64,000 nt of DNA, taken from the sequence record MZ234013.1, one strand, 5' to 3'. Each line of letters opens with the position of its first letter. Within the stretch, counting starts at the first letter, position 1. The translations under genes were made by a program, and so were the position numbers. Shown piece after piece: positions 965-57,882 of the stretch. The notes beneath the pieces were generated by a model. The model was given only the letters and a program-made list of their open reading frames with translations, did no database searches and had not been told where the DNA came from. Origin of the DNA: Escherichia phage vB_EcoM-101112UKE3-1.

Positions 965-3022
965 ATGATGGAACTCATTACAGAATTATTTGACGAAGAT
1001 ACTACTCTTCCGATTACAAACTTAAATCCAAAGAAGAAAATACCGCAAATTTTTTCAGTTCATGTTGATGATGCAATTGAACAACCAGGCTTTCGTTTAT
1101 GTACCTATACATCTGGAGGTGATACTAATCGCGATTTAAAAATGGGCGATAAAATGATGCATATTGTTCCTTTTACATTAACTGCTAAAGGTTCAATTGC
1201 TAAATTAAAAGGTCTTGGTCCAAGCCCAATTAATTATATCAATTCAGTTTTTACTGTTGCAATGCAAACAATGCGTCAGTATAAAATTGATGCCTGTATG
1301 CTTCGTATTCTTAAGTCTAAAACCGCTGGTCAAGCTCGACAAATTCAAGTTATTGCTGATAGACTTATCCGTAGTCGTTCAGGTGGCAGATACGTCCTTC
1401 TTAAGGAACTCTGGGATTACGATAAAAAGTATGCATATATTCTTATACATCGCAAAAATGTATCACTAGAAGACATTCCGGGAGTTCCGGAAATTAGTAC
1501 TGAGCTCTTTACTAAAGTTGAATCGAAGGTCGGTGATGTTTATATCAATAAAGATACTGGAGCTCAAGTAACTAAAAATGAGGCAATTGCAGCATCTATT
1601 GCGCAAGAAAATGATAAACGTTCTGACCAAGCTGTAATCGTTAAAGTTAAAATTTCCCGTAGAGCAATTGCGCAAAGTCAATCATTGGAATCTTCTAGAT
1701 TTGAAACGCCGATGTTTCAAAAATTTGAGGCTTCAGCAGCAGAATTAAATAAACCTGCTGACGCTCCTTTAATTTCTGACGCTAATGAATTAACTGTTAT
1801 TTCTACTTCAGGATTTGCATTAGAGAATGCTCTTAGTAGTGTTACAGCTGGAATGGCATTCAGAGAAGCTTCTATAATTCCTGAAGATAAAGAATCTGAT
1901 GTTAATACAGAAATAAAAAATAAAGCTTTAGAAAGATTACGAAAAGAATCTATTACTTCAATAAAAACTTTAGAAACTATTGCTTCTATAGTTGATGATA
2001 CTTTAGAAAAATATAAAGGTGCTTGGTTAGAAAGAAACATTAACAAGCATTCGCATTTAAATCAAGATGCTGCGAATGAGTTAGTACAAAATTCTTGGAA
2101 TGCAATAAAAACAAAGATTATTCGAAGAGAATTGCGTGGATATGCTCTTACCGCTGGATGGTCACTACATCCTATAGTCGAAAATAAAGATTCATCTAAA
2201 TACACACCGGCACAAAAACGCGGAATTCGTGAATACGTAAGTTCAGGATATGTAGACATAAATAACGCTCTTTTGGGATTATATAATCCAGATGAGCGTA
2301 CAAGTATTTTGACAGCATCTGATATAGAAAAAGCTATTGATAATTTAGATTCTGCCTTTAAAAATGGTGAACGATTACCAAAAGGTATTACTTTGTATCG
2401 TTCACAACGAATGTTACCTTCAATATATGAAGCACTGGTAAAAAATCGAGTTTTTTATTTTAGAAATTTTGTGTCAACATCATTATATCCAAACATTTTT
2501 GGTACTTGGATGACTGATTCAGCTGTTGGTGTTTTACCAGATGAAAAGCGTTTAAGTGTTTCTATTGATAAAACTGATGAAGGACTAGTAAATTCTAGCG
2601 ATAATTTAGTTGGAATTGGATGGGTTATTACTGGGGCTGATAAAGTCAATGTTGTTTTACCAGGTGGAAGTTTAGCACCTTCAAATGAAATGGAAGTCAT
2701 TTTGCCACGTGGATTAATGGTCAAAGTTAATAAAATAACCGATGCATCTTACAATGATGGAACAGTTAAAACTAACAACAAGCTTATTCAAGCTGAAGTT
2801 ATGACCACAGAAGAACTCACCGAATCGGTAATTTATGACGGTGACCGTCTAATGGAAACCGGCGAAGTAGTTACAATGACAGGTGATATTGAAGTAGAAG
2901 ACAGAGTTGACTTTGCATCATTTGTTTCATCAAATGTTAAACAGAAAGTAGAATCATCTCTTGGAATTATTGCGTCTTGTATAGATATTGCAAACATGCC
3001 TTACAAGTTCGTTCAAGGATAA
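965..3022 (+). CDS. alt: Alt ADP-ribosyltransferase (packaged, injected protein), copy 1
   Basis: 685 aa; N-terminal MELITELFDE capsid-targeting/gp21-cleavage-type leader; ART R-S-E type motifs LYRSQ, FVSTSL, EMEVILPRG; position next to gene 30 as in T4. Confidence 0.85.
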   Translation: MMELITELFDEDTTLPITNLNPKKKIPQIFSVHVDDAIEQPGFRLCTYTSGGDTNRDLKMGDKMMHIVPFTLTAKGSIAKLKGLGPSPINYINSVFTVAMQTMRQYKIDACMLRILKSKTAGQARQIQVIADRLIRSRSGGRYVLLKELWDYDKKYAYILIHRKNVSLEDIPGVPEISTELFTKVESKVGDVYINKDTGAQVTKNEAIAASIAQENDKRSDQAVIVKVKISRRAIAQSQSLESSRFETPMFQKFEASAAELNKPADAPLISDANELTVISTSGFALENALSSVTAGMAFREASIIPEDKESDVNTEIKNKALERLRKESITSIKTLETIASIVDDTLEKYKGAWLERNINKHSHLNQDAANELVQNSWNAIKTKIIRRELRGYALTAGWSLHPIVENKDSSKYTPAQKRGIREYVSSGYVDINNALLGLYNPDERTSILTASDIEKAIDNLDSAFKNGERLPKGITLYRSQRMLPSIYEALVKNRVFYFRNFVSTSLYPNIFGTWMTDSAVGVLPDEKRLSVSIDKTDEGLVNSSDNLVGIGWVITGADKVNVVLPGGSLAPSNEMEVILPRGLMVKVNKITDASYNDGTVKTNNKLIQAEVMTTEELTESVIYDGDRLMETGEVVTMTGDIEVEDRVDFASFVSSNVKQKVESSLGIIASCIDIANMPYKFVQG

Positions 3023-3025
3023 ATC

Positions 3026-5083
3026 ATGGAACTTATTACAGAATTATTTGACGGCGCTTCGGCGCCGGTTGTTAACTTAAATCCTAAGCATAAAATACCA
3101 CAAATTTTTGCTATTCAAGCCGGCGAAGAAAGCGTGCTTCCTGGATTTAGATTTTGTACATACACCTCTGGTGGTGATACGAATAAAAACGTTAAGCCAG
3201 GCGATAAAATGATGCATATCGTAATGATAGGTGTTAATGAGAAACTATCATTAGTTAAGCTTAAAAACTTGGGTGGAAATCCAATTGGTGTCATTAATGC
3301 CGTTTTTGATACTGCTCTTCAAACAATGAAACAGTATAAAATCGACGCATGCCTATTCCGCGTACTAAAAAGTAAAACAAATGGCGCAGCTCGTCAAATG
3401 CAAGTTATTGCTGACCGTTTAGTACGTACTAAAGGAGCAGGTCGATATGTTCTTTTAAAGGAAATCTGGGACTATGATAAGAAATATGCATATATTATGG
3501 TTTACCGTAAAAATGCCAATTTAGAAGACATTCCAGGTGTACCTCCTATTTCAACTGAGTTATTCACAAAAGTTGAATCAAAGGTCGGTGATGTTTATGT
3601 AGACGTTAAAACAGGAAATGCTGTTCCTAAAGCTGTCGCTGTTGCTGCTTCTATTGCTTTAGAAAATGATAAGCGCACGGACCAAGCTGTTATTCAGAAA
3701 ACTAAAATCAGTCGTCGATTAGCAGCACAAGCTCAATATTCTACTGTTGATGCTTCACTTCAGGGTGATAGCTTTGCTGCCAAGAAATATCAAGAGTTTG
3801 AATCTAAAGTTCCGGTATATAAAGCAGAAGGTCCGATGAACTCTGGCGTTATCCAGATTGGTTCAAACTTCAGCAAAGGAGCTATCGGTGGTATGAGAAG
3901 TGCTTCTCGTTTTAAATCTAACGATTATGAACTAGAAAGCTTCCGAAATCATATTGCATTGGCCCATGCACGTTTACGTGATCCATCTATCAAGTTGCAG
4001 AGCGATATAACATATCAAGGTTCTCAAGAATATTTAAAGAATAAAGAATTCTTTGATTATAAAACTGATAAAATTTTAAGCGATCTTGCTGACATTAATA
4101 TTTCTAATAGCTTTGATGTTATTAAGAAAATTATCAATGATTTGGTTAAAGGTTCTAAAGCCACGCCAGATGAAAAGACAGCTATTATTCAATTTGTAAT
4201 GAATGGCATTTATAAATTGATTAATGAATCTGCTGCCCAGGCATATGAATACGCAAGCACCGAAGTAGCTCCAAAAGGACTGACTCAGGCTGAATCTGAT
4301 GTAATTGAAGATTATTGTGCAGATTCATATGTTGAAATGAACTCGTTCCTTTTGGGTAAACCAGATTCTACCCGTGAAGAATACATGGAACGAGCTATTA
4401 AGCACATCGAGACGTTAGATTCTGCCTTTGCCAAAGGATCAGTTCTTCCTCCAGGAACTACACTTTACCGTGGGCAAGAAGTTACCTTTAAAACTTTGCG
4501 TCATAACATTGAAAATAAAATGTTCTATTTCAAGAACTTCGTATCCACATCGCTTAAACCAAATATCTTCGGTGAGCATGGTAAAAACTATATGGCTCTA
4601 GATGATTCTGGCGCAGTATTTTCTGGCGAAGGAGAAGGTTCCGTTGATACAGAAGATTTGATGCATATGGGTAGTCATTCTACATATGCTAATGAAGATG
4701 CTGAAACTAGCGTGGGTATGGTAATTAAAGGAGCTGAGCGAATCAAAGTTATCGTTCCAGGTCATTTATCAGGATTTCCATCAGAAGCTGAAGTTATTCT
4801 ACCACGTGGAATTTTACTGAAGATTAATAAAGTAAGTACGTACTTTATGAAAGAAACTGCTTATAACAAGTATCTAATCGAAGGTACAATCGTTCCTCCT
4901 TCTGAACAATTAGAAGAATCAGTATATGATGGAGACCATCTAATGGAAACTGGTGAAGTTCGTCCAATGGCTGGATTTAATCAATTCCTTGTAGAAGAAT
5001 CAAAAGAAGAGGAAAATGAAGTTTCTCAAATCTTGGCTTCTTTGGTTAACATCAACGGAATGTCTAAAAAGTTCAAAATGTAG
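3026..5083 (+). CDS. Alt-family ADP-ribosyltransferase paralog, copy 2
   Basis: 685 aa; same N-terminal leader (MELITELFDG...NLNPKHKIPQIF); conserved LYRGQ, FVSTSL, EAEVILPRG; central region diverged from copy 1. Confidence 0.8.
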   Translation: MELITELFDGASAPVVNLNPKHKIPQIFAIQAGEESVLPGFRFCTYTSGGDTNKNVKPGDKMMHIVMIGVNEKLSLVKLKNLGGNPIGVINAVFDTALQTMKQYKIDACLFRVLKSKTNGAARQMQVIADRLVRTKGAGRYVLLKEIWDYDKKYAYIMVYRKNANLEDIPGVPPISTELFTKVESKVGDVYVDVKTGNAVPKAVAVAASIALENDKRTDQAVIQKTKISRRLAAQAQYSTVDASLQGDSFAAKKYQEFESKVPVYKAEGPMNSGVIQIGSNFSKGAIGGMRSASRFKSNDYELESFRNHIALAHARLRDPSIKLQSDITYQGSQEYLKNKEFFDYKTDKILSDLADINISNSFDVIKKIINDLVKGSKATPDEKTAIIQFVMNGIYKLINESAAQAYEYASTEVAPKGLTQAESDVIEDYCADSYVEMNSFLLGKPDSTREEYMERAIKHIETLDSAFAKGSVLPPGTTLYRGQEVTFKTLRHNIENKMFYFKNFVSTSLKPNIFGEHGKNYMALDDSGAVFSGEGEGSVDTEDLMHMGSHSTYANEDAETSVGMVIKGAERIKVIVPGHLSGFPSEAEVILPRGILLKINKVSTYFMKETAYNKYLIEGTIVPPSEQLEESVYDGDHLMETGEVRPMAGFNQFLVEESKEEENEVSQILASLVNINGMSKKFKM

Positions 5084-6428: not shown

Positions 6429-7522
6429 TAAAAAGTCCCCGCATATAAAGAAGCACGGTTTAACGTGATAATTTCTCTCATAGTAATCTCGAGAGTAAAT
6501 GTACTAGGGAGATTTGGAGCAATAGCTAATCCGTTAAAGTTACCATTAGGTGTTTTATCAAATCTGATACTCTGGATTTGACATGGACCGAATATTTCCG
6601 TTTTTCCATCAAACTTAGATGTTGCACCAAAGTTTTTCACCATCCAAATTGTCGGGTTTGAAACTACAAGAACGTTAGTTAAACTCGATGTCATTTTCTC
6701 AAATAACGTCTTATTTTTAACTGCATCTTCTGGAGTTAACGGCTCAATAAAAGTAGAACGGTACCACTCATCTAAATATCCTTTTATTTCAGCAGCATAT
6801 TGAGATTTACCAGTTTCACCGTAAGAAAAATAGTTAAAATACTGATAGATATTAATAATAGCCATTAAATCTTCTGTTGAGCGCGGAGTCAAATCCCAAG
6901 TGAACACTTTAGTTCTATTTTCAGCACCGCCGTACATGCTTCTGGCTGTCGTATAAATCTGTTCATTATTATCAGCCATTATACCTTGTGTTATACTTTC
7001 CAGCGCTCCAAATACTGCGGTTGAAGCCATATTGCTTAGCACACCAGTAGCAGTACCTCCACCTTTTGTAATAAGACTATCTTGAACATCATTAAATCTA
7101 TGTGATGACGTATCGACGTCAGATTTAGATCTAGGTAAAAGAATATTTGCAACAGGAACTTTACTTATTGTTCCTGAATTATTATCTGATATTAGTCCAT
7201 TTGATAGTTTTGATACTGTATTACTGATAGTGTTTCTGGCTGTACGTAAAATACTCGAAGATGAAGAAGAGTAGTTAGATCTCATCGTTCTAAGACTTCC
7301 AGAATCCCTAGATGACATATTGTATGCAGTAAATAATAATCCATTCTTATATAGATCTGTTACCTGGAAGTCCCCTGTAGTGTCATTACCACTAGCACGC
7401 CCAGTTGGAAACTGGGCTGTGTATGTTTTAGTTCCTACTTCTGATTTAGTACTCTGTCCGGCTGAAATTGTTTCACCGGACTTTTTAATTAAATCAGCAG
7501 TTATTTCTTTAACAATTGCCAT
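6428..7522 (-). CDS. 48: baseplate tail tube cap gp48
   Basis: 364 aa, same as T4 gp48; synteny. Confidence 0.8.
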   Translation of the reverse strand: MAIVKEITADLIKKSGETISAGQSTKSEVGTKTYTAQFPTGRASGNDTTGDFQVTDLYKNGLLFTAYNMSSRDSGSLRTMRSNYSSSSSSILRTARNTISNTVSKLSNGLISDNNSGTISKVPVANILLPRSKSDVDTSSHRFNDVQDSLITKGGGTATGVLSNMASTAVFGALESITQGIMADNNEQIYTTARSMYGGAENRTKVFTWDLTPRSTEDLMAIINIYQYFNYFSYGETGKSQYAAEIKGYLDEWYRSTFIEPLTPEDAVKNKTLFEKMTSSLTNVLVVSNPTIWMVKNFGATSKFDGKTEIFGPCQIQSIRFDKTPNGNFNGLAIAPNLPSTFTLEITMREIITLNRASLYAGTF

Positions 7523-56054: not shown

Positions 56055-56082
56055 TCTTGCTTAAGAGCCTTTGTTAATAATT
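56055..56082 (+). promoter_or_regulatory. possible T4 middle promoter (MotA box cTTGCTTAa + -10 TAATAAT) upstream of tRNA cluster
   Basis: TGCTTA about 12 bp upstream of a TAnnnT -10 element. Confidence 0.35.
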
Positions 56083-56154
56083 GGGAATTAGCCAAGTTGG
56101 TAAGGCACTGGATTTTGATTCCAGGATGCAAAGGTTCGAGTCCTTTATTCCCAG
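56082..56154 (+). tRNA. tRNA-Gln (anticodon TTG)
   Basis: Acceptor TGGGAAT/ATTCCCA, anticodon loop tTTTGAt, T-loop GGTTCGAGTCC. Confidence 0.85.
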
Positions 56155-56155
56155 C

Positions 56156-56242
56156 GCGAGAATGGCCAAATTGGTAAAGGCACAGCACTTAAAATGCTGC
56201 GGAATGATTTCCTTGTGGGTTCGAGTCCCACTTCTCGCACCA
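56156..56242 (+). tRNA. tRNA-Leu (anticodon TAA), class II with long variable arm
   Basis: Acceptor GCGAGAA/TTCTCGC, loop cTTAAAa, encoded CCA. Confidence 0.85.
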
Positions 56243-56247
56243 AATTT

Positions 56248-56321
<74 letters not shown>

Positions 56322-56331
56322 ATTTAATTTA

Positions 56332-56405
56332 CTCCGTGTAGCTCAGTTTGGTAGAGCGTCTGCTTTGGGAGCAGAATGTCGTAGGTTCAAATCCTGCCAC
56401 GGAGA
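56332..56405 (+). tRNA. tRNA-Pro (anticodon TGG)
   Basis: Acceptor CTCCGTG/CACGGAG, D-arm GCTCAGTTTGGTAGAGC, T-loop GGTTCAAATCC. Confidence 0.85.
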
Positions 56406-56407
56406 CT

Positions 56408-56494
56408 GGAGGCGTGGCAGAGTGGTTTAATGCACCGGTCTTGAAAACCGGCAGTCGCTCCGGCGACTCATAGGTTCAAATCCTATCGCCTCCG
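56408..56494 (+). tRNA. tRNA-Ser (anticodon TGA), class II
   Basis: Acceptor GGAGGCG/CGCCTCC, anticodon loop cTTGAAa, long variable arm. Confidence 0.85.
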
Positions 56495-56496
56495 TT

Positions 56497-56572
56497 GCTG
56501 ATTTAGCTCAGTAGGTAGAGCAACTCACTTGTAATGAGAAGGTCGGCGGTTCGATTCCGTCAATCAGCACCA
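56497..56572 (+). tRNA. tRNA-Thr (anticodon TGT)
   Basis: Acceptor GCTGATT/AATCAGC, loop cTTGTAa, T-loop GGTTCGATTCC, CCA. Confidence 0.85.
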
Positions 56573-56573
56573 A

Positions 56574-56650
56574 GGCCCTGTAGCTCAATGGTTAGCAGCA
56601 GTCCCCTCATAAGGGAAAGGTTACCAGTTCAAATCTGGTCTGGGTCACCA
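56574..56650 (+). tRNA. tRNA-Ile (anticodon CAT, presumably lysidine-modified to read AUA)
   Basis: Cloverleaf with anticodon loop cTCATAa, T-loop AGTTCAAATCT, CCA; T4 is known to encode an AUA-reading tRNA-Ile. Confidence 0.75.
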
Positions 56651-56659
56651 AATTAATTA

Positions 56660-56746
56660 GGGGAGTTATCCCGTAGAGGTAGCGGTGTGGACTGTAAATC
56701 CATTGTCATTGCGACTCGGGTGGTTCGACTCCATCACTCCCCACCA
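56660..56746 (+). tRNA. tRNA-like gene, anticodon GTA (Tyr-type), class II with long variable arm
   Basis: Acceptor GGGGAGT/ACTCCCC (7 bp), anticodon stem GTGGA/TCCAT with loop cTGTAAa, variable-arm hairpin GTC/GAC, T-arm GGTGG-TTCGACT-CCATC, encoded CCA; D-arm spacing atypical. Confidence 0.5.
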
Positions 56747-56792
56747 ATTTATGACTCGTCGTGAGACGCTCAGTTCTTTATTAAGGACTGAT

Positions 56793-57458
56793 ATGCATTT
56801 TTATCTTTATAAAATAACAAATAAAATTAATAATAAAATTTATATTGGTGTGCATTCTACCGAAAATTTAGATGATGGATATATGGGTTCTGGTAAATTA
56901 TTAAAAAGAGCCCAAGACAGGTATGGTATAGAAAATTTTTCTAAAGAAATATTAGAATATTTTGATGATAAAGAATCTATGCTTGAAGCCGAGAAAAATA
57001 TTGTTACAGAAGAGTTTTTAAATAGACCAGATGTGTATAATTTAAAACTTGGCGGTGAAGGCGGATGGGATCATATAAATATTCCTGAGATGCTAAATCA
57101 GAAGAAAGACGCTAGTTTAAAAGGAGCTAAATCGTTTAAGTCACGTTTTAAAAATGATATTTTACTTCAAGAAAAATATCGTCAAAATGGTTCAAATGTA
57201 TTTAAACGTTTATGGTCAACTCCTGAATACAAGGAAAAATTTTTAAATAATAGCAGATTTTTAAATAAGCATCATACTCTTGAAACTATTAATAAAATGA
57301 AAGAAATTCACGCTAAAAATAATCACCAGAAAGGTGAAAAGAATTCCCAATTTGGTATGATGTGGATTCATTCATTAGATGAAAAAGTTTCTAAACGTAT
57401 TAAGAAAACTGACCCAATTCCAGAAGGATGGTTTAAAGGTCGAAAAATGAAATTTTAA
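56793..57458 (+). CDS. segB: SegB GIY-YIG homing endonuclease
   Basis: GIY-YIG motif FYLYKITNKINNKIYIGVHST...GYMGSG; start at internal ATG with AAGGA RBS gives 221 aa as in T4 SegB; location inside tRNA cluster as in T4. Confidence 0.8.
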   Translation: MHFYLYKITNKINNKIYIGVHSTENLDDGYMGSGKLLKRAQDRYGIENFSKEILEYFDDKESMLEAEKNIVTEEFLNRPDVYNLKLGGEGGWDHINIPEMLNQKKDASLKGAKSFKSRFKNDILLQEKYRQNGSNVFKRLWSTPEYKEKFLNNSRFLNKHHTLETINKMKEIHAKNNHQKGEKNSQFGMMWIHSLDEKVSKRIKKTDPIPEGWFKGRKMKF

Positions 57459-57463
57459 ATTAC

Positions 57464-57538
57464 GTCCCGCTGGTGTAATGGATAGCATACGATCCTTCTA
57501 AGTTTGCGGTCCTGGTTCGATCCCAGGGCGGGATACCA
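57464..57538 (+). tRNA. tRNA-Arg (anticodon TCT)
   Basis: Acceptor GTCCCGC/GCGGGAT with CCA, T-arm CCTGG-TTCGATC-CCAGG, anticodon loop cTTCTAa. Confidence 0.7.
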
Positions 57539-57882
57539 AATGAGAAACCGGGTCGCTACCGGTAAGTCGTCGGACTGATGTTCCCTGTTTAAGGACTGGC
57601 ATTAATAAATCTTTATGTTTTGTTAATGCCCCCTTATATCACAGCAGAAACGGCGCACCGAATTATCGATTCGAGGAAATATCTTTGCCATAAGCCGAGT
57701 AGCGTTTTTGACGGAACGTTCGGATATGGTCGAGATATGGCCTTTTAAAAATATTGAGTAGCGTCAACTGCTTAATAACCGGGTTCGAATCCCGGCGTTT
57801 CGTACAAACACTTGCCTTAGCAGGTGGAACCCCGACAAGGTTGCCGCAAGGCTTAGCCCCGACCGAAAGGTTGGGGCTTTTT
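57539..57882 (+). ncRNA. candidate stable small RNA(s) (T4 rnaC/rnaD-like region) ending in a terminator
   Basis: About 340 nt without a plausible ORF, containing hairpins (ggcattaa...ttaatgcc) and a tRNA-like T-arm CCGGGTTCGAATCCCGG; exact RNA ends not determinable by eye. Confidence 0.45.
57855..57882 (+). terminator. rho-independent terminator (agccccgaccgaaaggttggggct + TTTT)
   Basis: 10-bp stem, GAAA loop, T-run. Confidence 0.7.

Follow-up and report, generated by a model that had tools for sequence, protein, structure and literature searches.

A ninth tRNA gene in a T-even phage tRNA cluster: a tRNA-Tyr of a widespread phage lineage with a probable role in counter-defence

Phage T4 carries eight tRNAs, and in its genome (NC_000866) a spacer of ~41 nt is all that separates tRNA-Ile from the downstream segB. 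The eight T4-type tRNAs are also found, in T4 order, in a stretch of 64,000 nucleotides from Escherichia phage vB_EcoM-101112UKE3-1 (MZ234013.1; this whole stretch is called the window), as a preliminary description made from the letters alone had claimed and as ARAGORN bears out. Between tRNA-Ile and segB, however, the window holds an additional 87-nt element, which that description read as a Tyr-type class II tRNA and for which it left three options: a pseudo-tRNA, a processing signal, or a genuine extra tRNA supplementing a rare codon. Is this element a working tRNA gene, and if so, what would a phage gain from it?

Results

A tRNA-Tyr gene between tRNA-Ile and segB

ARAGORN called a tRNA-Tyr(gta) with the exact boundaries of the element on the plus strand (class II, 87 nt, CCA encoded), so that the extra Tyr-type tRNA beyond T4's eight stands; its sequence is GGGGAGTTATCCCGTAGAGGTAGCGGTGTGGACTGTAAATCCATTGTCATTGCGACTCGGGTGGTTCGACTCCATCACTCCCCACCA. 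The acceptor stem, U33 with GTA, long variable arm, TTCGACT loop and encoded CCA that had first drawn attention to it all lie at the positions given in Table 1. T4 does not contain the sequence: compared with T4, the 87 nt and a little sequence on either side amount to a clean insertion or deletion, and the concern that the T4 reference might carry the same letters annotated as spacer is thereby inapplicable. ARAGORN labels the neighbouring tRNA-Ile as Met, owing to its CAT anticodon.

The general tRNA model of Rfam (RF00005) gave the element 30.2 bits (E = 0.028), marginally above the gathering score of 29 and the lowest value among the nine tRNAs of the window, the remaining eight of which score 48.8-72.9 bits. 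In E-value mode the tRNA-Sec model (RF01852) ranked slightly above RF00005 (34.4 vs 30.2 bits); this candidate was rejected, as its score lies below the gathering score of 47, many of its pairs are non-canonical and the anticodon is GUA.

Recognition by E. coli TyrRS depends on G1-C72, the discriminator A73, the GUA anticodon and a long variable arm. All of these are present in the window's tRNA-Tyr, and its anticodon loop, CTGTAAA, aligns with the identical loop of E. coli tyrU. The D-loop AGAGGTA holds the equivalents of A14, R15, G18G19 and A21 (in a shifted register, see below), and the T-loop TTCGACT shows the T54-Psi55-C56-R57-A58 pattern; the columns of both loops are invariant or nearly so among 18 homologues. 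A promoter and terminator scan around the cluster returned 8 promoter-like sites, vs 7.3 in shuffled sequence.

Table 1. Features of the tRNA-Tyr locus, in window coordinates.
Feature	Position	Strand	Description and evidence
Nine-tRNA cluster	56082-57538		ARAGORN; the Rfam general tRNA model finds all nine
Upstream tRNA array	56082-56650	+	Gln, Leu, Gly, Pro, Ser, Thr, Ile(CAT); ARAGORN, Rfam
Microhomology ATTAATTAG	56652-56660	+	5' edge of tRNA-Tyr; partner ATTCATTAG exactly 718 bp downstream
tRNA-Tyr(GUA)	56660-56746	+	Class II, CCA encoded; ARAGORN, RF00005, annotated copies in T6, T2, RB3, PST, RB27, RB14
Acceptor stem, 7 bp	56660-56666 / 56736-56742	+	GGGGAGT with ACTCCCC; 7/7 pairs 100% paired in 18 homologues; 6/7 compensatory
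Acceptor-D connector TATC, 4 nt	56667-56670	+	U8 A9 invariant, then 2 variable nt; register test, RNAalifold
D-arm	56671-56685	+	Stem CCGT/GCGG (56671-56674/56682-56685), 7-nt loop AGAGGTA; 72/72 cells paired, one compensatory change
Anticodon arm	56687-56703	+	5-bp stem GTGGA/TCCAT, loop CTGTAAA; 100% paired, 3/5 pairs compensatory
Anticodon GTA	56694-56696		Preceded by U33
Long variable arm TGTCATTGCGACTCG	56704-56718	+	Stem GTC/GAC, loop ATTGC; 3/3 pairs compensatory; same letters in T6 and T5
C48	56707		Context UGUCAU, identical to T6
T-arm	56719-56735	+	GGTGG-TTCGACT-CCATC; 97.8% paired, 3/5 pairs compensatory
Discriminator A and encoded CCA	56743-56746
segB	56793-57458	+	GIY-YIG homing endonuclease, 221 aa, directly downstream of tRNA-Tyr; ORF/translation, T6 annotation at same position
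Partner microhomology ATTCATTAG	57370-57378	+	3' part of segB, ~codon 194 of 221; offset scan
tRNA-Arg(TCT)	57464-57538	+	Beyond segB; ARAGORN, Rfam

Comparative support for the cloverleaf

A single-sequence minimum-free-energy fold of the element (z = -0.91) contains no cloverleaf. Such folds are uninformative for tRNA, and the verdict that this is a real tRNA was therefore decided by comparative evidence. We aligned 18 distinct homologues, one of them on an E. coli phage-plasmid-like replicon and the others in phages of at least 10 groups; the phage members are T6, Elenatom, rV5-like, Karamvirus, Moonvirus, Phapecoctavirus, two Tequintavirus, Sugarlandvirus, Felixounavirus, Mooglevirus, a Hafnia Ounavirinae phage, two Klebsiella T4-like phages and two Enterococcus Herelleviridae phages. 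Cloverleaf pairing holds in 99.5% of cells, 16 of the 24 pairs show compensatory changes, and all five helices covary. None of 500 shuffled alignments reached any of five measures, pairing fell to 44-60% when the 3' partners were slid by 1-3 columns, and RNAalifold, run unguided, returned the same consensus fold. The anticodon, A73, the A37 equivalent and the T-loop are invariant, and G1-C72 is found in 18/18; the copy of T5 itself, aligned separately, has G1-U72. Judged by these alignments, the tRNA-Tyr gene is under strong purifying selection for tRNA structure and is no relic.

These data bear directly on the first two options, namely that the element is a pseudo-tRNA or serves merely as an RNase P or other processing signal that frees the segB message. 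Such a reading could appeal to the borderline Rfam score, to the labels in some GenBank records ('tRNA-Pseudo-GTA', 'tRNA-OTHER' or none) and to a C×C mismatch in the D-stem as ARAGORN draws it. The mismatch, however, reflects a wrong register, since the true D-stem is fully paired in 18/18 homologues. The covariation of all helices, together with the conserved anticodon loop, identity elements and CCA end, also argues against a pseudo-tRNA, as do functional data on the T6, T5 and SP15 copies: T6 expression and phenotype and a suppressor note on T5 (below) contradict both options. A role as processing signal is further at odds with RB3 and T2, which keep tRNA-Tyr with no segB downstream. We regard both options as effectively refuted.

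An extended acceptor-D connector

The preliminary description had also remarked on atypical spacing of the D-arm, and this is real. In canonical tRNAs, just two nucleotides, 8 and 9, connect the acceptor stem to the D-stem, as they do in E. coli tyrU and in the window's own tRNA-Leu and tRNA-Ser; the window's tRNA-Tyr has four. Three registers of the D-stem were compared across the homologues. The one drawn by ARAGORN (U10-C13/G23-G26, including the C×C mismatch) is paired in only 63.9% of cells, and an E. coli-like 3-bp D-stem in 55.6%; both were rejected. Pairing CCGU with GCGG, two nucleotides on from ARAGORN's register, fills 72/72 cells, one C-G to U-A compensatory change included, and leaves a textbook D-loop, AGAGGUA. 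It is this shift that yields the 4-nt connector.

The extension is common to the whole tRNA-Tyr lineage, at 4-5 nt, with 5 nt in the Karamvirus, Moonvirus and Phapecoctavirus copies. Members of the lineage score 22.8-39.1 bits with RF00005, some of them below threshold, against 53.4 for E. coli tyrU, and the extended connector is the likely cause of these low scores. GenBank labels for the homologues are correspondingly inconsistent, and censuses of phage tRNAs probably under-count tRNA-Tyr, given that standard finders under-score or mis-draw the lineage. By analogy with the T5 homologue, which has the same connector and is noted as convertible to a suppressor, the deviation would be a matter of architecture and no argument against function.

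Might the connector itself be under selection? A conserved 4-5-nt connector could be a selected hallmark of a mobile-element tRNA-Tyr lineage, for example by altering how tRNA-targeting enzymes recognize the molecule, although we hold this idea only tentatively and think it rather improbable. If true, the connector would alter the tRNA core and thereby change recognition by host nucleases or by modification and processing enzymes, while function with TyrRS and the ribosome would be kept.

A mosaic locus among T-even phages

Over a 241-nt span that takes in the element, the window matches Escherichia phages Pu-Krd-SF1/2/5/6/7 at 100% identity and T6 and Yersinia phage PST at 99.2%; the records of these phages annotate the element as tRNA-Tyr between tRNA-Met(Ile) and segB. 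The T6 copy (MH550421 66473-66559; AP018814) shares 85/87 nt with the window's and occupies the same locus, with tRNA-Ile upstream and segB then tRNA-Arg downstream; the variable arm, the C48 site and the 718-bp microhomology with segB are all identical. The two differences preserve pairing: where the window has C41 and U75, T6 has U41 and C75, exchanging G-C for G-U in the anticodon stem and G-U for G-C in the T-stem. Elsewhere in the array the window phage keeps tRNA-Pro and tRNA-Ser, whereas T6 has neither.

RB3 (AJ884578, deposited with the 2008 SegB study of Brok-Volchanskaya et al. 2008, PMC2330249) carries a tRNA-Tyr identical to the window's, and the T2 copy is 1 nt off; both follow tRNA-Ile(CAU). 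In RB3 and T2, tRNA-Tyr is succeeded by tRNA-Asn and tRNA-Arg without segB, whereas in the window segB stands in the place of tRNA-Asn. These comparisons show a locus of mosaic content in T-even phages, with T4 as the member that lacks tRNA-Tyr. A blastn search with the 87 nt matched 1,389 phage records, with identity of at least 95% in 508, and the records that carry the gene mostly label it tRNA-Tyr. The window's ninth tRNA is thus neither an error nor a novelty, as T2, T6, RB3 and hundreds of relatives carry tRNA-Tyr; the gene is already known, having been annotated since at least the 2005-2008 work on RB3 and T2L and its function dissected in T5 (2024) and T6 (2026).

The adjacent endonuclease gene, whose ORF is intact in the window, raises the question of whether tRNA-Tyr persists chiefly as a selfish hitch-hiker, carried in the co-conversion tract or target region of SegB. 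SegB cleaves inside tRNA genes of T2L, tRNA-Tyr included, and its homing replaces the Met-Tyr-Asn-Arg region (PMC2330249); the patchwork of phages with Tyr and Asn but no segB (RB3, T2), with Tyr and segB (T6, the window) and with segB only (T4) is what such traffic would leave. Against this, the lineage is conserved, with compensatory changes, where no segB is adjacent: in rV5-like, Felixounavirus, T5-like and Enterococcus phages and in a phage-plasmid. RAWTSGAAC, the motif published for SegB, moreover has no exact match in the window's tRNA-Tyr, and exact matches fall only in the Gly and Thr genes; the closest approach in tRNA-Tyr is GAGTCGAAC on the minus strand of the T-loop, with one mismatch. 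We consider hitch-hiking very unlikely as the main reason for the gene's persistence.

Sequence between tRNA-Tyr and segB resembles that after tRNA-Arg (~62% over 34 nt, with a 10-nt exact core), a likeness too weak to interpret.

A probable role against PtuAB nucleases

What, then, does the gene do? Our preferred explanation, which we hold to be very probable, is that it encodes a functional phage tRNA-Tyr(GUA) that adds to the decoding pool, and that its best-documented benefit is counter-defence against PtuAB. The experimental basis lies in two close studies. During T6 infection, the Septu system EcB88 (PtuAB) cuts E. coli tRNA-Tyr at C48/A49 in the variable arm (Chihara et al., Nat Commun 2026, PMC13096335). 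T6 tRNA-Tyr gives a northern signal, is itself cleaved by Septu at C48 and is 'relatively unstable'; its overexpression restores plating under Septu and partly suppresses degradation of host tRNA-Tyr, whereas tRNA-Arg, tRNA-Met and tRNA-Thr do not restore plating (PMC13096335). Wild-type T6 is protected only partly, deletion of its tRNA region makes it more Septu-sensitive, and T4, which has no tRNA-Tyr, fails to escape (PMC13096335). T6 escapers arise by SegB-dependent amplification of a 718-bp tRNA-Tyr+segB unit, accompanied by a 28-aa truncation of SegB (PMC13096335). Similarly, tRNA-Tyr of the T5 family (T5, SP15) rescues phages from the PtuAB of retron-Eco7 (Azam et al., Nat Commun 2024, PMC11555353). 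That rescue is lost with anticodon or stem mutations, and E. coli tRNA-Tyr driven by a strong phage promoter also rescues (PMC11555353); the anticodon dependence and the rescue by E. coli tRNA-Tyr together argue for the supply of a decoding-competent tRNA.

In the mechanism that we propose, tRNA-Tyr would share its transcription with the T-even tRNA cluster and undergo the same maturation as the other tRNAs there. E. coli TyrRS would recognize it through G1-C72, A73, GUA in a host-identical loop and the long variable arm, enlarging the decoding tRNA-Tyr pool. When PtuAB-type nucleases (Septu, retron-Eco7) cut the variable arm of tRNA-Tyr, the extra phage tRNA would sustain translation in a dose-dependent manner, and SegB would raise the dose through tandem amplification of the 718-bp tRNA-Tyr+segB unit via the microhomology.

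The window's gene is an ortholog of the T6 copy for which counter-defence was demonstrated and belongs to the same lineage as that of T5. Two pair-preserving bases away from T6's tRNA-Tyr, it would be expected to behave as T6's does. It also has the hallmark of an amplifiable unit, an adjacent segB with microhomology: an offset scan found the best register at 718 bp (14/31 matches, including an exact ATTAG), and this register, with its endpoint near codon 194 of 221, equals the published unit length and SegB truncation of T6. With tRNA-Tyr, segB and the microhomology all in place, we predict that the window phage can amplify the unit when exposed to Septu, as T6 does.

T5 offers a more distant comparison. 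Its tRNA-Tyr is ~84% identical to the window's and shares the 4-nt connector, the D-stem register and identical variable and T arms, whereas the acceptor and anticodon stems differ by compensatory changes. A GenBank note on the T5 gene (T5t22) records that replacing its anticodon yields an effective amber suppressor, and by this analogy tRNAs of the extended-connector architecture would undergo charging and work on the ribosome in E. coli. For charging with tyrosine, this note and the anticodon-dependent SP15 rescue are indirect evidence, and full decoding competence of the T-even allele is predicted from these T5 and SP15 relatives. The proposed role, keeping up tRNA-Tyr supply under PtuAB attack, would be common to T5 and the window, and the routes to dose differ: T5 has a strong promoter, T6 SegB-driven amplification. 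T5 tRNA-Tyr has been described as resistant to cleavage by retron-Eco7, which was credited to 'its distinctive variable loop', whereas that of T6 is cut by Septu (PMC13096335). Given that the variable arms of T5 and of T6 and the window are identical, the difference in resistance must come from the nuclease, from tRNA parts outside the variable arm or from the assay.

The T6 authors left open whether their tRNA acts as 'decoy or supplement' (PMC13096335), and their wording invites the alternative that the RNA mainly soaks up the PtuAB nuclease and spares host tRNA-Tyr, with charging and decoding unneeded. Cleavage of the phage tRNA at the same C48 and the partial sparing of host tRNA-Tyr on overexpression would fit a decoy, which could also tolerate an unusual connector and a low tRNA-model score. 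A change to the anticodon alone nevertheless abolishes rescue in the T5-family homologue (PMC11555353), and T5's tRNA-Tyr acts as an amber suppressor when given another anticodon. The TyrRS identity elements and anticodon loop are, besides, invariant across very distant phages, and a pure decoy needs neither. A decoy function in place of decoding is in our judgement quite unlikely.

Another alternative accepts decoding and dispenses with defence: tRNA-Tyr would simply meet the phage's higher demand for Tyr codons in an AT-rich, TAT-rich genome. In 60 long ORFs of the window, which is 35.6% G+C, Tyr accounts for 4.2% of codons, with TAT as 78% of these; E. coli proteins contain ~2.8% Tyr. The cluster's other tRNAs match codons that the phage uses often. 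PMC13096335 cites codon demand as the classical view, and such a benefit is compatible with the counter-defence explanation and plausible as a contribution to it. As the sole explanation it is possible but doubtful, in that T4, with essentially the same codon usage, grows well without tRNA-Tyr, a gene that it has lost, and the sole reported phenotypes of the gene are related to defence. Nor is there a rare codon to supplement: Tyr is served by one isoacceptor, both of its codons are decoded by one and the same GUA tRNA, and neither codon is rare. Of the third option in the preliminary description, then, the genuine tRNA survives and the rare codon does not, and we moved the rationale to tRNA-Tyr supply under PtuAB cleavage because the experimental evidence points there.

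Distribution across mobile elements

Beyond T-even phages, the lineage occurs in rV5-like, Felix-O1-like, T5-like, Phapecoctavirus, Klebsiella T4-like and Enterococcus Herelleviridae phages and in E. coli phage-plasmids. The chromosomal tRNA-Tyr genes of E. coli (tyrT/tyrV/tyrU) resemble the window's in being class II and in the loop CUGUAAA, G1-C72, A73, the GUC/GAC variable stem and the C48-A49 context. They differ in a 2-nt connector, a 3-bp CCC/GGG D-stem with a large loop and a variable loop of 3 nt (5 in the window), and are too diverged from the window's copy for detection by blastn. Among 5,426 complete E. coli genomes, blastn returned 0 chromosomal matches, and no cellular source of the lineage was found there; all 273 matches, at 90-95% identity, lie on plasmids. 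No description of the extended connector was found in the literature searched, which says nothing firm on novelty; only its conservation and the restriction of the lineage to mobile elements appear undescribed in that literature.

One plasmid copy belongs to a tRNA cluster, Asn-Tyr-Thr-Ser, beside genes for DNA ligase, PhoH, glutaredoxin and an integrase, a phage-plasmid-like context. A strict signature scan of GTDB representatives of ~185,000 species, which demanded exact matches and could let diverged cellular relatives escape, hit only two contigs, from a Ruminococcus metagenome-assembled genome and a Tissierella genome (Firmicutes). Both copies keep the extended connector, and their neighbours are mobile-element-like, unlike those of a cellular tRNA operon.

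Phage-type tRNA-Tyr genes on plasmids and in Firmicutes

Among 5,426 complete E. coli genomes, 269 carry phage-type tRNA-Tyr genes (90-95% identical to the window gene), only on plasmids of ~70-120 kb; none of the chromosomes in this set carried one. Plasmid NZ_CP024264.1 looks like a phage-plasmid because its Asn-Tyr-Thr-Ser tRNA cluster (3921-4471) adjoins genes for DNA ligase, PhoH, GrxA and an integrase.

The lineage also has Firmicutes members. On the 58-kb contig CALESG010000001.1, from a Ruminococcus metagenome-assembled genome, the tRNA-Tyr gene (7235-7319) keeps a 4-nt connector between the acceptor stem and D-arm and does not encode CCA; upstream of it, a 915-aa ORF (2135-4882) matches the Pfam RdRP family (PF05183, E = 3.9e-13). 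The contig may represent a phage whose RNA polymerase is of the two-barrel, RdRP-like type. The second member, in Tissierella sp. P1 (~1074-1157, minus strand), is not called by ARAGORN. Its neighbors include a dual-specificity phosphatase, an ERCC4 nuclease and, right beside it, an ORF (1236-2120, minus strand) in which a PemK/MazF toxin domain is fused to a Schlafen AlbA_2 domain. The juxtaposition of a tRNA gene with a putative tRNA nuclease of the Schlafen type is suggestive.

Annotation and two further copies

GenBank labels for the lineage vary between 'tRNA-Pseudo-GTA', 'tRNA-OTHER' and none, as seen at the compared loci L006 (phage Pet-CM3-4), L007, L008, L010, L015 and L016 and among blastn matches to the 87-nt gene. 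ARAGORN misses the tRNA-Tyr gene in 6 of the 20 loci scanned, and counts of phage tRNA-Tyr are probably underestimates.

The tRNA-Tyr of phage T5 (NC_005859, 10341-10428, minus strand), which is reported to resist cleavage, has exactly the variable-arm and T-arm sequences of the window gene (56704-56735) and of the T6 copy, which is cut by Septu. Since the variable arms are the same, their sequence cannot explain a T5/T6 difference. The T-even copy in Escherichia phage Elenatom (101-187) has GA at D-loop positions G18G19, which are otherwise nearly invariantly GG in the homologue alignment; the change could mark a weakened allele or come from a sequencing error.

The segB junction

We sought the published cleavage motif of the homing endonuclease SegB, RAWTSGAAC, in the tRNA genes of the window. 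Besides the exact matches tabulated below, the tRNA-Tyr T-loop carries the motif with one mismatch.

Exact SegB motifs in tRNA genes and the hairpin preceding segB (window coordinates)
Feature	Position	Strand	Location
Exact SegB motif (GAATCGAAC)	56298-56306	-	T-loop of tRNA-Gly
Exact SegB motif (GAATCGAAC)	56549-56557	-	T-loop of tRNA-Thr
9-bp hairpin TCAGTTCTT-TATT-AAGGACTGA	56770-56791	+	immediately 5' of segB ATG (56793)

The Shine-Dalgarno-like AAGGA of segB lies inside the hairpin, which could sequester the ribosome-binding site in transcripts reading through from the tRNA cluster. Such sequestration is known among other T4 homing-endonuclease genes. The T4 spacer between tRNA-Ile and segB is unrelated in sequence to the hairpin-bearing spacer of the window.

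This tRNA-Tyr/segB spacer (56747-56792) weakly resembles the sequence directly 3' of tRNA-Arg (57539-57600), at ~62% over 34 nt, and the two share an exact 10-mer, TTAAGGACTG, at 56781 and 57589. The likeness may be a recombination scar of segB insertion, or it may be due to chance; the downstream segment is the 5' part of a homologue of T4 rnaD (species 2 RNA).
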